A DNA stretch of 5,489 nt from a virus (Duplodnaviria > Heunggongvirae > Uroviricota > Caudoviricetes). The stretch is taken from the IMG/VR virus record IMGVR_UViG_2545824719_000020. One strand, written 5' to 3'. Made by a program: the position numbers and the translations under genes. Shown here piece by piece: positions 1 to 4,588 of the stretch (positions within the stretch are counted from its first letter, which is position 1; each line of letters starts with the position of its first letter). The notes beneath the pieces are model-generated. The model had not been told where the DNA came from. It did not search any database and saw only the letters and a program-made list of their open reading frames with translations.

Positions 1-1131
1 TCAAATGACCAGTTTTTTCCATTCCTTACCGCGTGCGTCGTTGTAAATATCGGTCATTTTTTGATTCGAATGGCCTAGCAAAATTTTGGTATCAACCCCC
101 TGCTCTCTTAACAATCGCTCTGATAAAGATCTCTGCTCATGGAAAGAGGGAGGGGTGCCATTAGCACGCCAGTTGTAATCCACAGAATCCCGGGCTTTTT
201 TAAATGCAACGGTTAATGTTGCTGGCTTAACCATCCCGCCGCGCTTAGCTGTCCCTTTCGCGTGATGGTGGTGCAATAGCCACGGACTAAGAACGCAATC
301 GCGGCAGGATGACACCACATCATCCAGGGTGAGATTTAATTTATCGCAACGCAGAGCCAGAGGGATGGCAATCCGGGTTCCTGTTTTTTGCTGTTCGACA
401 TGAAGATAACCATCCCGGATATCCGAAAATTGCATTTTGCAAATATCTGAAAGGCGCTGGCCTGTCATCAGTGCCAGCAGCATACCGCGCTGTAAAAAGT
501 AACCATCCTTTTCCGCTGCGTTATAAATCATCATCCACTCATCAAAAGTCAGTCGCTGTCTTGATATCCGCACCTGCGGTTTTTTTGCCGATTCTGCAGG
601 GTTAAAGCCTGGCGGGACATCGCCCGTTTGCTGAGCTTCCCGGAAAACATCGATCAGTACCTTCCTGAAAATTTGTCCCATTCTGTTATGTCCTCTGGCC
701 TTGTACTCTTCCAGTACTGATACCACATCTTTTACGGTTATGGCATCTAACGGTCTGGTGCCAAAACGTTCATCAAATACCCTGAGAGGGGCCGCTTTCT
801 GTTTCAGCGTGTTGAGTTTGATCTCGCCGTTTTCATATCTTTCCTGTTGAATTTTTCTGTAATTATTCAGAAAAATGGTAACGGTTGATGAACCGCCGGT
901 ATCACTAATAATTTTCTCCTGCAGACTGAGCATTTGTTCCATTTGCTGCCGGGCAAGACGGCTGTTCGCTTCTGCTGCAATAGTTTCTGCCAGTTTCTGG
1001 TCAATACTGCCGAGACCGTGATTTTTGCCTGTTATGGGATGCCTGTAACGCCAGTAAACTTTGTTATTTCTTTTGTCAAAATACGGAGATAATCCCGGAA
1101 CATTGGTTTTATATTTTCGCGGGCGCGCCAT
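1..1131 (-). CDS. int: Phage integrase, lambda Int-family tyrosine recombinase (376 aa)
   Basis: ORF from ATG 1131-1129 to TGA 3-1. N-terminus MARPRKYKTNVPGLSPYFDKRNNKVYWRYRHPITGK aligns with the arm-binding N-terminus of lambda Int. C-terminal catalytic signature is present in order (TGQR, QQKTG, HEQRSLSERL, LLGHS, DIY = R-K-HxxR-H-Y). AGAGGA Shine-Dalgarno lies 9 nt upstream of the ATG, inside xis. The first 23 nt overlap xis, as in lambda. Confidence 0.93.
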   Translation of the reverse strand: MARPRKYKTNVPGLSPYFDKRNNKVYWRYRHPITGKNHGLGSIDQKLAETIAAEANSRLARQQMEQMLSLQEKIISDTGGSSTVTIFLNNYRKIQQERYENGEIKLNTLKQKAAPLRVFDERFGTRPLDAITVKDVVSVLEEYKARGHNRMGQIFRKVLIDVFREAQQTGDVPPGFNPAESAKKPQVRISRQRLTFDEWMMIYNAAEKDGYFLQRGMLLALMTGQRLSDICKMQFSDIRDGYLHVEQQKTGTRIAIPLALRCDKLNLTLDDVVSSCRDCVLSPWLLHHHHAKGTAKRGGMVKPATLTVAFKKARDSVDYNWRANGTPPSFHEQRSLSERLLREQGVDTKILLGHSNQKMTDIYNDARGKEWKKLVI

Positions 1132-1357
1132 CTTCCAGTATCCTCTTCAAAGCAGGGTGATCTGTGGCGATCACCTCCGGCTTGTTTACCATTCCGACAA
1201 AGCGAGCTTGCGGATCCACTCGCCAGCGTCTTCCAACTTTTTTGGGGAGAGGAAATATCATTCCGGCTTTAGCGTATTTACTTAACGTACTCGGAGTTGG
1301 GACCGGTTCACTGAATTCCTCTTTTGCCCACTCAGTGAGCAGAATAAGTCTTGCCAT
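1109..1357 (-). CDS. xis: Excisionase Xis (82 aa)
   Basis: ORF from ATG 1357-1355 to TAA 1111-1109. Small basic protein (MARLILLTEWAKEEF...GMIFPLPKKVGRRWRV) that aligns from residue 1 with lambda Xis (LQEW...IFPPPVKDGREY) as recalled. Sits immediately upstream of int with a 23-nt overlap. Confidence 0.8.
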   Translation of the reverse strand: MARLILLTEWAKEEFSEPVPTPSTLSKYAKAGMIFPLPKKVGRRWRVDPQARFVGMVNKPEVIATDHPALKRILEDGAPAKI

Positions 1358-1421: not shown

Positions 1422-3893
1422 TTAAAAATCAGCCTGATTCGGGATCAGTTTTTGCCAGATAACTGAAACGTATTTTGCCTGGTAACGGGCGTCATCAAGT
1501 GCATTATGGCGCTCACCTTCGAATGGAATAGCCGTTCTGGCATCGAAGTCTATGGCTTTCCCCAGCTCAACGATTGTGCGTACATCGCGATCGTTGTAGT
1601 AACGCCACGGGCAGGGGATCCCCTGCCGTTCGTATGAACGGCGCAAAATCGTGTTGTCGAAGTTGGCTCCATTTCCCCAGACATGAACAAAAAATTCACC
1701 GGAGTTTTCGTCGATAAATTCCCGCAATTGTAACAGTGCATCATCTAACGGGATTTCATCGGTCATAATGGCAGACTGCGCTTCACGTGATTGCTTCAGC
1801 CACCTTTTAATGACGTCACGATCAATGACTCCGCCAGCAGTTTCCAGATCGATAGTCTTACTAAATTCCGGTCCCATATCTCCGGTTTGCGGATCGAAAA
1901 ATATTGCACCTATTGAGATAATCGGGGCATCAGGATTTTTTCCCATGGTTTCAAGGTCGATCATTAGATGGTCACACGTCCTGCTGGTGGATGTGATAAC
2001 GTGATGACCGTTCATCGTAATTAAGGGATCTGCCGTCTCGCCAGTTTCACTATCGCTGGCGTGATCCTGAGCGCTACCAGCATTCTCCTTGTGTGGATGT
2101 TCAGCGCCTTCCATTTCCTTCGGATCATTTTCCTGAACTTCAACCTGATTCTCTTCATCGAATGTTTCCTGGTATGTTGCGTCACCCATCACCGCGCCAC
2201 AATCAGGGCAGTTGCCGCCACCGCTTTGACCGCAGGCGGTGCAGACTTTTTCCGGTTCCTGTTGCGCTACTGGCTCAGGTTGTTTCGTTTCTGGCTCGTT
2301 TTGTAACGCATTTGGGCTGTTTTGTTCCGCTTTCTGGCCGTTCTGTTCCGTTTCTTGTTGGTTCTGATTCACTGAATCGCGGGTTTCAATCCCCTTCACC
2401 CATTTCGGATCATTCGGGTCGCTAATCCCTGCAACAAATTCACCACGTGATACAGCAAGCAACTTATTGGCGTCAGGCTGGCTGATATTGGCTGCCTGCA
2501 TAATTTTGTTTACTTCGTCAGCGGTAACTTTTACCGGCTCTGGTTGTGCGATCGTGTCAGATGCACCAGTATTTTGTTGTGAACCTGAGTATGTACTGTT
2601 TTTGCGGGCGAAATATTCTTCTTTCGTGATTTCAGTAGCCCCGGCAGCCAGCGCCTTATCCAGACCAGAAAGTTTGTTTGCGCGACCGTATTTTTCGCCA
2701 TCCTTGTCGGTGAAGAGGAAGTAGAACGGCCCTTCACGCTCTACAGATGGTTCGACTTCCACTTTGCATTCGGTTTTTTCGTTGTCCGGAATTGCCGTTT
2801 CCACTGCATCAGTTTCTGGTACTGGCGACGAGAGAGTATCAGTTGCGCTCTGATTTCTTCCTTCATCTTCAAACACGCCCTTTGTAGTCAGGTATTCAGT
2901 AATGTATTTGTTCAGTGCCACAGGGTCTTTGTGAATGTCGATCGGACGTTCACGGACAAGGCCAAAAATAGTCTGGCGGTCGTAGCGAAGGGCATCAGGC
3001 TGTTTGCGCATTGATGCCGAGATACGCTTCCAGTCTTCGCGGTCGTTGTCGATAACTTCATTTTTTGCCCAGCGATGGATGCTGCCGTCAATGTTTCCGG
3101 CATCCACATCACCAGGCCAGAGAGCGTAGGCCAGTTCATCATCCAGTGTTTTCCATGTCTGCTTGTATTCGCGACGAATGGCGGCAGTGACAGGGTGGAT
3201 TTTTCCTGTTGAGTTTTCAGTGTTCTGCCGGTTGACTCTGGCGTAGGCGAGATCAACAACAGACGTGTATTTCCCGGTTTCTTTGCGTTCGGCTTCGCGA
3301 CGTTTTTTCCAGGTGCGTAATTCTGTCTGGATCTCAGGCCATTTTGCGCCCGGCTTACATTTATGTTTAACCCACCCGATGGCGAACAGCTTTAGTTCTG
3401 AATACATGACGTTAACTTCAGGCATTTTCATCAATGCCTCAACGATATGCCCGTCGAATGTTGCCATGTCCTCCTGCAACAATTCCTGTGCGCTAATAAC
3501 CATATCAACGGTGATGTTTTCACATGTGTCGAACTTAACCATGACAGCGTTCTGTACTTCAGGGGACAGCTTGTCAAAATTGACGTTCATCGGATCGGAT
3601 TCTGGTTCGACTGGAATAAAGGAAGCGGATTCCTCATCCCAGCGGTTTTCCTGCATATATTCAGCATCCCAGGAATCGAGGGCAGGGCGGGGTATACCGG
3701 GTTTATCCTCGCAGACAAGAAATTTATAAGCGCAGTCCTGAGCAGCCGGATAATGTTCCAGGAATTGCCAGTGAAATTTTGCGCGGGCGCGACGTTCATC
3801 ACCGGCTTCAATGGCAGTGGCTACAGCGACGGCACCTTCTTCCTTTATTGCCTGTTCGTCCGGAATGGCGGCGCAAATAAAGACTTTACTCAT
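1422..3893 (-). CDS. ydfE: 823-aa multidomain prophage protein with C-terminal DEDDh (DnaQ-like) 3'-5' exonuclease domain; likely the full-length form of Qin ydfE
   Basis: Uninterrupted 2472-nt ORF from ATG 3893-3891 to TAA 1424-1422, with GAGG at 3904-3907 upstream. Residues 641-823 carry the three DEDDh motifs: Exo I MIDLET (D646, E648), Exo II [12 protein letters not shown] (D746), Exo III [9 protein letters not shown] (H796, D801). Residues 551-565 form a CxxC-x7-CxxC zinc ribbon. Residues 1 to about 375 form a domain with no motif I can name. The gene symbol is positional only (gene after ydfD in the K-12 Qin order) and is not verified. Confidence 0.85.
   Translation of the reverse strand: [823 protein letters not shown]
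1425..1973 (-). other. DEDDh 3'-5' exonuclease domain (aa 641-823) of the 823-aa protein
   Basis: Motif-based call: DxE in MIDLET, D in NFDNTIL, H-x4-D in HNALDDA, with spacing typical of DnaQ/RNase T-like exonucleases. Confidence 0.75.
2199..2243 (-). other. C4 zinc-ribbon motif (aa 551-565, [15 protein letters not shown]) inside the low-complexity linker
   Basis: Two CxxC pairs 7 residues apart, flanked by Q/E/P-rich and acidic low-complexity sequence. Confidence 0.6.
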
Positions 3894-3988: not shown

Positions 3989-4177
3989 TTATCCAGCCGG
4001 GATTTCGTTATTCAGGTTCAGCGATACTTTTTTTAACGGGAGGCATTCACCGGGGATTTTTTGTTCGTCCCTTACCTGAATGCAGGATGACTTACTGTCA
4101 TAAATTCCGGTAATCACATTTTGTGGCTCACCCGTTATAAGAAAAACGGTCATCACCAGTGCAAATGCTGAAGTCAC
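3989..4177 (-). CDS. ydfD: YdfD-like small membrane (lysis) peptide, 62 aa, GTG start
   Basis: ORF from GTG 4177-4175 to TAA 3991-3989, with GGAG 7 nt upstream. N-terminal hydrophobic helix (SAFALVMTVFLITG) followed by a polar tail containing EQKIPGECLP and EIPAG, resembling K-12 YdfD as I recall it. Sits directly after dicB as in Qin. The GTG start overlaps the stop of the dicB downstream frame (GTGA). Confidence 0.7.
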   Translation of the reverse strand: MTSAFALVMTVFLITGEPQNVITGIYDSKSSCIQVRDEQKIPGECLPLKKVSLNLNNEIPAG

Positions 4178-4361
4178 TGCTGTTCTCCGATAATACCAAG
4201 TTCAAGAAGGGCAATTCTGGAAAGTATGGAATTATCATTGAGAAGATAAGGTTCATATTTTCTCATCTTAATGGCATCTTCAGTAAATACCGGGTTACTG
4301 ATAGGACACCAATTTCAAAACAACCTTCAGACGTATTAACGTTTGGTAATAACGTTTCCAT
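4174..4361 (-). pseudogene. dicB: dicB (cell-division inhibitor) homolog disrupted by a -1 frameshift after codon 19
   Basis: ATG 4361-4359 with GAGGA at 4369-4373. Frame 1 encodes METLLPNVNTSEGCFEIGV (matches the DicB N-terminus MKTLLPNVNTSEGCFEIGV) then reads LSVTRYLLKMPLR and stops at 4265-4263. From 4305 the -1 frame encodes (P)ISNPVFTEDAIKMRKYEPYLLNDNSILSRIALLELGIIGEQQ and stops at TGA 4176-4174. Restoring one nt near 4304/4305 gives a 62-codon ORF, the length of K-12 DicB (…GVTISNPVFTEDAI…). Confidence 0.7.
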
Positions 4362-4376
4362 TATCGCGTCCTCAAC

Positions 4377-4530: not shown

Positions 4531-4573
4531 AAAAAGGGCGGCAGAGCAGTCACGGAGTAAAACTGATACCGCC
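4531..4573 (-). terminator. Intrinsic-terminator-like hairpin plus U5 tract forming the DicF 3' end
   Basis: GGCGG (4573-4569) can pair with CCGCC near the 3' end (about 4541-4537), enclosing an internally paired loop (CAG/CTG), followed by TTTTT at 4535-4531 on the minus strand. Read-through would be needed to express dicB and downstream genes. Confidence 0.5.
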
Positions 4574-4588
4574 AAACGTCACCAGAAA
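4536..4588 (-). ncRNA. dicF: DicF small regulatory RNA (53-nt mature form; ftsZ-targeting sRNA of the dicB operon)
   Basis: Minus-strand sequence 4588 to 4536 is TTTCTGGTGACGTTTGGCGGTATCAGTTTTACTCCGTGACTGCTCTGCCGCCC, followed by TTTTT. This is identical over 53 nt to the DicF sequence as I remember it. Same strand and position (between ydfC and dicB) as in Qin. Confidence 0.92.

Follow-up and report, generated by a model that had tools for sequence, protein, structure and literature searches.

Introduction

RecE of the Rac prophage of Escherichia coli K-12 is a workhorse of recombineering, and the mosaic exchange of modules is familiar in lambdoid phages. The N-terminal region of RecE, about 600 amino acids (aa) long, was described as being of unknown function in a 2023 review (PMC11611040), and full-length RecE has been reported to enhance linear-linear recombination, unlike the truncated enzyme (PMC11611040; PMC8314000). 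Here we compare with RecE a prophage exonuclease of 823 aa, encoded on the minus strand of a DNA stretch of 5,489 nucleotides (nt), IMG/VR record IMGVR_UViG_2545824719_000020 (Duplodnaviria; Heunggongvirae; Uroviricota; Caudoviricetes), the whole of which is hereafter called the window. An earlier note, made from the letters of the window, had singled out a 31-aa segment of this protein as a conserved-looking island shared with RecE. Our analysis points to a wider relationship: the protein appears to be a RecE-type scaffold, in which the PD-(D/E)XK nuclease was exchanged for an Rv2179c-like DEDDh nuclease, with the junction in a linker at about aa 626. As for the 31-aa segment, we propose that it contains a putative short linear interaction motif, with the core LAAxRGE[FY]VxGISDP[NT]DPKW, situated in a flexible acidic tether that leads from the scaffold to the nuclease, and we put the probability of this reading at roughly 0.55.

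A RecE-Type Scaffold with a Different Nuclease

The K-12 recE reference was taken from NC_000913. Translated from the minus strand, positions 2376-2468 of the window encode aa 476-506, which share 27 of their 31 residues with RecE 456-486 (E=2e-17 in BLASTP with just this peptide). The RecE string that the earlier note had quoted thus proved exact, and the local alignment significant; its placement in the N-terminal half of RecE holds in so far as the segment lies inside the non-catalytic region, although residues 456-486 of 866 are just past the midpoint. What had to be abandoned is the idea of unrelated exonucleases that share these 31 aa and nothing else. At the DNA level a single blastn block with 77.5% identity over 448 nt (gene nt 1427-1874 against recE nt 1367-1772, E=9e-108) covers aa 476-625; it begins exactly at the reported segment, stops about 16 residues short of the catalytic domain, and its 150 codons comprise the motif, the Q/E-rich linker, the Cys4 knuckle and the acidic linker. 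At the protein level the similarity to RecE covers aa 262-626, and aa 244-626 match profile positions 267-603 of NCBIfam NF007259 (RecE equivalog) with 281.2 bits, which is below the curated cut-off of 1269. As to the N-terminal 240 residues, they give no direct Pfam match to the RecE domain PF06630; comparison of the window-type and RecE-type N-termini by HHalign yielded a probability of 95% (E=3.7e-8), and the N-terminal domain appears to be a remote homologue of PF06630 that lies below the family threshold.

The features of the exonuclease are given below, all of them on the minus strand; pLDDT is the predicted local distance difference test score of an AlphaFold2 model, which was built with a 73-sequence alignment.

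1422..3893, minus strand: gene of the 823-aa prophage exonuclease (RecE-type non-catalytic region, then DEDDh domain); open reading frame (ORF), the same gene being labelled "exonuclease" in the closest genomes
3234..3893, minus strand: N-terminal ordered domain, aa 1-220; pLDDT >90; putative remote homologue of the RecE PF06630 domain
2859..3173, minus strand: helical middle domain, aa 241-345; pLDDT >90; present in RecE and in many motif-less proteins
2016..3110, minus strand: protein-level similarity to RecE, aa 262-626 against RecE 278-592; BLASTP E=1e-62
2589..2741, minus strand: small beta/alpha domain, aa 385-435; pLDDT 92-96; stands opposite a gap when aligned with RecE
2469..2588, minus strand: predicted disordered linker that precedes the motif, aa 436-475; mostly pLDDT <50
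2376..2468, minus strand: 31-aa segment, aa 476-506; translation, 27/31 identical to RecE 456-486
2397..2459, minus strand: motif core, aa 479-499; near-invariant in 38 divergent representatives and the top conservation window
2020..2467, minus strand: mosaic DNA block in common with Rac recE, aa 476-625; blastn
2244..2375, minus strand: Q/E/N/P-rich linker from the motif to the Cys4 knuckle, aa 507-550 (Q10 E8 N6 P5); pLDDT <50
2199..2243, minus strand: CxxC-x7-CxxC, putative zinc knuckle or ribbon, aa 551-565; pattern match, pLDDT about 60
1974..2186, minus strand: strongly acidic linker, aa 570-640, net charge -14; RecE homology stops within it, at the junction near aa 626
1455..1970, minus strand: predicted C-terminal DEDDh 3'-5' exonuclease domain, aa 642-813; PF16473 match, pLDDT 80-93

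Four domains of the model are confident (aa 1-220, 241-345, 385-435 and 640-823, with pLDDT mostly >90), and aa 436-640 form a low-confidence linker, for the most part with pLDDT <50. The middle domain is the part of the query that is matched by most distant representatives. The small domain at aa 385-435, a beta-hairpin/helix domain inserted in the linker, is absent from K-12 RecE. A second model, of aa 1-440 (pLDDT 85.6), searched against PDB and BFVD, gave no informative structural relatives, and sequence searches of PDB found the motif in no entry, their sole match being a weak one between the DEDDh domain and 8kel.

The C-terminal domain matches PF16473 (Rv2179c-like) with E=8.5e-63 and 211.7 bits, against a gathering cut-off of 27, over profile positions 2-177 of 177. 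The residues of the DEDDh pattern, D646, E648, D746, H796 and D801, are found within DLE 646-648, NFD 744-746 and HNALDD 796-801, and their assignment as the catalytic D-E-D-D and H is predicted from the motif pattern. The Pfam scan of the window protein revealed no PF12684/DUF3799, whereas RecE has PF12684, its PD-(D/E)XK domain, at 615-850; the earlier supposition that the two proteins differ in catalytic fold was therefore correct. Among the Rv2179c-like/DnaQ-type DEDDh exonucleases (PF16473, PF00929), enzymes of the Rv2179c type are single-domain, whereas here a domain that matches PF16473 over its full length hangs on a RecE-type scaffold of about 640 aa via a predicted disordered acidic tether.

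When aa 1-626 are compared with RecE 1-592 section by section, the C-terminal domain is the sole part of the protein without a RecE counterpart, and the whole of the non-catalytic region appears to be homologous to that of RecE. Since the homology spans this region and only the C-terminal domain differs, we regard the protein as a putative RecE-type scaffold with a swapped nuclease, and the motif would be the invariant core of this common scaffold. Besides the homology, RecE and the window protein have in common that both genes belong to a lambdoid early-left operon near int/xis. The differences are as follows: the predicted activity is that of a DEDDh 3'-5' exonuclease instead of a PD-(D/E)XK 5'-3' exonuclease; the gene is followed by xis and int, with no recT or other annealase gene there, whereas a RecT-family gene stands immediately downstream of recE; and the small domain at aa 385-435 is an addition of the window protein.

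Conservation of the Motif

An exhaustive HMMER search with aa 244-626 against 1.84 billion cluster representatives found only 169 clusters. In 38 representatives (50%-identity clusters with enough flank) the core consensus is (K/R)(Q/L)LAAxRGE(F/Y)V(E/D/P)GISDP(N/T)DPKW(V/I), where LAA-RGE[FY]V varies little and GIS-DP-x-DP-KW not at all; the G-I-S and the K are invariant without having been selection criteria. In the alignment of 39 motif-bearing proteins, aa 479-499 make up the best conserved window of 21 aa (0.81, the next best being 0.52), and the block of aa 481-500 scores 0.77 against 0.06-0.29 in the flanking 20-aa linker blocks. The segment, which the earlier note had taken to be conserved, is indeed the most conserved element of the family in the conservation profile across homologs.

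This conservation could serve an overlapping DNA or RNA element, such as a promoter, a small RNA (sRNA) or a recombination site, and not the peptide. A prophage early operon is rich in regulatory RNAs, and in the window the DicF RNA is located 2 kb from the motif. However, the third codon positions vary freely at the invariant amino acids. Depending on the genus, an invariant L, A, R, G or P is encoded by any of 3-4 codons, R by CGT, CGC, CGA and AGG and G by all four of its codons, and loci from other genera differ from the window by 6-11 synonymous codons per 22. This variety of synonymous codons places the selection at the level of the peptide and not of a DNA or RNA element. Moreover, Rfam has nothing over the motif region at gathering thresholds, and no conserved overlapping ORF is present there. 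The DNA- or RNA-level explanation, which deserves scarcely any credence, was rejected as contradicted by the codon analysis.

A scan for SDP[NT]DPKW in one genome per species (185,579 species) recovered 22 true loci, from Escherichia, Shigella, Klebsiella, Citrobacter, Enterobacter, Kluyvera, one Enterobacteriaceae isolate and four metagenome-assembled genomes (MAGs); a Planctomycetaceae match with 38% identity is doubtful. A scan of IMG/VR gave at least 584 contigs; the 80 that were retained, all nearly identical prophages of E. coli, do not widen the diversity. The four MAGs are those of loci L005 (Veillonella parvula), L010 (Roseburia), L012 and L014 (both Proteobacteria), and over the motif query their identity to the window is 82-93%; these E. 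coli-type prophage genes look like binning contamination rather than an indication of true hosts. In the literature we found no paper with the motif string and none that links Rv2179c-like domains to prophages.

The spread of the motif bears upon another explanation, namely that the similarity to RecE only records a recent mosaic exchange by recombination among lambdoid prophages, the segment being a functionless passenger linker. In E. coli the DNA block of 77% identity does span exactly from aa 476 to the domain junction at aa 625, as is typical of lambdoid module exchange. Nevertheless, the core is retained in Citrobacter, Enterobacter and Kluyvera, although the flanks there cannot be aligned and the codons show synonymous differences; the copies outside Escherichia are not DNA-identical, very recent transfers; and a passenger linker would be expected to drift like the adjacent Q/E-rich stretches, in disagreement with the block scores given above. 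We therefore hold this explanation to be very improbable.

Architectures Carrying the Motif

Architectures were derived from the representative library and Pfam scans; a search of a large protein database with a 160-aa block gave fragments of at most 280 aa. From the Pfam scans of the representatives (P numbers) and the species-level loci (L numbers), five settings of the motif could be distinguished:

Scaffold with DEDDh domain: window; L005-L008; Klebsiella L016; L022; Kluyvera L023. Followed by xis and then int, with no annealase gene between, where the flank shows (L007, L016, L022, L023, window)
Scaffold with PD-(D/E)XK domain: K-12 RecE; L018; L021; L024. RecT-family gene downstream in 4/4
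Scaffold only, 680-690 aa: Stx phages L002, L004. The stop codon runs into the start of gam, with bet and exo next
Motif, linker and PD-(D/E)XK domain, no scaffold: P0381 (420 aa), P0318. Downstream of P0381, a 271-aa gene without Pfam match
RecE-RecT fusion: P0281

The proteins of the third setting are annotated as "exodeoxyribonuclease VIII" of Stx phages (Shigella phage 75/02 Stx AHB80178; phage PhiR5_2 XSB41351). They share with the window protein the RecE-type N-terminal domain, the middle region, the motif and the Cys4 knuckle; unlike it, they contain no nuclease domain in Pfam and PHROG scans and end about 100 aa after the knuckle, and their gene, which overlaps the gam start, is translationally coupled to gam-bet-exo (L002, L004). 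As for the scaffold-less form, P0381 is a genuine gene, which begins 75 bp after the kilR gene, so that the notion of a portable peptide, put forward in the earlier note, stands to the extent that a genuine RecE-like protein of 420 aa carries the motif while lacking the remainder of the scaffold. P0281 (703 aa) consists of the RecE N-terminal domain and the motif, joined to a RecT domain (PF03837, 528-678), and has no nuclease; it may be a deletion fusion of recE and recT or an assembly artefact.

Each type of N-terminus pairs with each type of nuclease, the crossed combinations being L005 and L012. In L012 (4606-7569) a protein of 987 aa has a PD-(D/E)XK domain together with an N-terminus and a middle region of the window type (84-88% identical). 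The variants of the motif track the host genus and not the type of nuclease; in Kluyvera, the same 21-aa variant accompanies both types. Judged from this series of sequences, the motif appears to be the one element that every architecture of the family has kept with hardly any change, through selection at the protein level.

These architectures speak to two further explanations. According to the first, the motif is a self-association or intramolecular element that assembles or regulates an oligomeric nuclease. Oligomers are common for both nuclease classes, PD-(D/E)XK enzymes such as RecE, a tetramer (PMC11611040), and DEDDh enzymes, and a short helix predicted at aa 475-482 could pair with itself. 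But the motif occurs with two unrelated nuclease folds, without a nuclease and without the scaffold, so that there is no shared folded domain for it to bind; since no folded domain is common to all motif carriers, an intramolecular partner is unlikely. In the monomer model the segment is not confidently docked, which leaves only pairing of motif with motif. On the whole we find self-association unlikely.

According to the second, the motif acts together with the neighbouring Cys4 knuckle as a small module for nucleic-acid binding, by which DNA ends are held for the attached nuclease. All motif-carrying proteins are associated with DNA-end processing, and in the Escherichia block the CxxC-x7-CxxC element follows the core at a distance of 52 residues, and both RecE and the Stx-phage proteins conserve it; zinc binding by this element (aa 551-565) may be supposed from its pattern. 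On the other hand, most motif-bearing representatives other than those of the Escherichia group lack the four cysteines, which makes the motif and the Cys4 element separable, the Pfam DZR match of the element is non-significant (E=0.12), and the motif, with a net charge of 0, lies between acidic linkers of -5 and -14. A nucleic-acid-binding role of this kind seems to us quite improbable.

A Putative Docking Motif in a Disordered Tether

The description of the segment as an island between low-complexity linkers agrees with the model: the flanks are Q/E/N/P-rich and acidic, with pLDDT <50, and the motif itself (pLDDT 43-59) shows a small bump over its neighbours, in contrast to the adjoining domains with pLDDT >90. 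We thus deal with a short conserved segment (21-22 aa) in a predicted disordered region that is independent of the neighbouring folded domains, which are the usual attributes of short linear motifs.

The following mechanism can be proposed. The motif would be unstructured alone and fold upon binding to a conserved partner, probably a host or lambdoid-phage protein of DNA metabolism in Enterobacteriaceae. The binding would bring the attached nuclease, or, in the nuclease-less form, the Red proteins encoded next to it, to the same place of action. The motif would then also be a candidate for part of the activity of the RecE N-terminal region, for example the enhancement of linear-linear recombination by full-length RecE. 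Comparable elements are the C-terminal tip of SSB and the C-terminal domain of Redbeta that binds lambda Exo, where likewise DNA-end-processing proteins are coupled to their partners through a small, conserved piece of protein held on a flexible acidic tether (PMC11611040). The motif has no sequence resemblance to them and is internal, whereas theirs are C-terminal.

Several points weigh against this reading. The conservation values come in part from sequences picked for carrying the motif, as were the 39 aligned ones, so that their absolute level is inflated, though the folded domains still score far lower. Of the 73 long representatives that have the middle domain, 44 share nothing but this helical domain and are without the motif, so that the two are separable modules. 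The tracking of the host genus by the motif variants could equally reflect exchange in local phage pools. The low pLDDT is compatible with a binding motif, yet is no proof of one. The nuclease domain of RecE alone (564-866), which is without the motif, substitutes genetically for full-length RecE (PMC11611040); the motif is therefore dispensable for core RecET recombination and, for the same reason, a candidate for an accessory activity.

A more specific form of the proposal is that the motif serves expressly for docking to a single conserved factor, of enterobacterial or lambdoid-phage origin. With its help lambdoid prophages would direct interchangeable DNA-end nucleases (RecE-type 5'-3', DEDDh 3'-5', or the Red system in trans) to one shared site, such as DNA ends or the replisome, and the motif would also underlie the activity of the RecE N-terminal region, including the linear-linear enhancement. 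We advance it tentatively, as a possibility about which doubt prevails.

The Prophage Locus

The window is the left end of a lambdoid prophage that is inserted next to ompW in E. coli, and many complete genomes match it at 98-99% identity. The order of genes, all on the minus strand, is int, xis, the 823-aa exonuclease, a DUF1482/ydfD-like gene, dicB, DicF RNA and ydfC. The two genes directly downstream of the exonuclease gene are:

1-1131, minus strand: int; ORF list and reference-genome annotation
1109-1357, minus strand: xis; ORF list and reference-genome annotation

The reading frames of int and xis share 23 nt (window 1109-1131, minus strand), as they do in the annotation of reference genomes. 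A full-length DicF sRNA is found at 4536-4587 (minus strand; Rfam RF00039, 76.7 bits, E=3e-16) between dicB and ydfC, which is the arrangement of the Qin prophage of K-12. In comparison with the closest complete genome, CP025847, dicB (4174-4362, minus strand) has a deletion of 1 bp at about 4295-4305; it shifts the frame after approximately codon 20 and a truncated DicB is predicted, whether as a real pseudogene or owing to a sequencing error.

The family of the exonuclease is already present in databases as phrog_2082, which the protein matches end to end, and in NCBI as "exonuclease" or "3'-5' exoribonuclease domain-containing protein", with older labels of "exodeoxyribonuclease VIII". The precomputed Pfam annotation of its close homologues lists PF27430 and PF27432; RecE proteins lack both, and these families therefore do not describe the shared motif. 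PADLOC gave only a weak generic DEDDh match for the window, and a known defence system is thus unsupported. The K-12 pseudogene ydfE of the Qin prophage corresponds to the first 255 codons of the exonuclease gene (window 3129-3893, minus strand; L028 3579-4343), is 91% identical to it and is truncated by IS2E. K-12 thus retains only this remnant of the DEDDh-type gene, along with an intact RecE in Rac.

Significance

What is newly described here is the swap of a DEDDh domain for PD-(D/E)XK on the RecE scaffold, the view of the nuclease-less and scaffold-less forms as one series, and the motif as the invariant element common to the swapped, nuclease-less and scaffold-less forms. If the motif has no partner, the finding is merely another case of lambdoid mosaicism. 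An abundant E. coli prophage "exonuclease" beside int/xis, of which ydfE is the K-12 remnant, can now be viewed as a putative RecE-type scaffold with a predicted DEDDh 3'-5' nuclease. As to the N-terminal region of RecE itself, its best-conserved feature is a single near-invariant motif of 22 residues in predicted disorder, which persists through replacement or loss of the nuclease domain and thereby offers a small and precise target for mutagenesis and partner screens.

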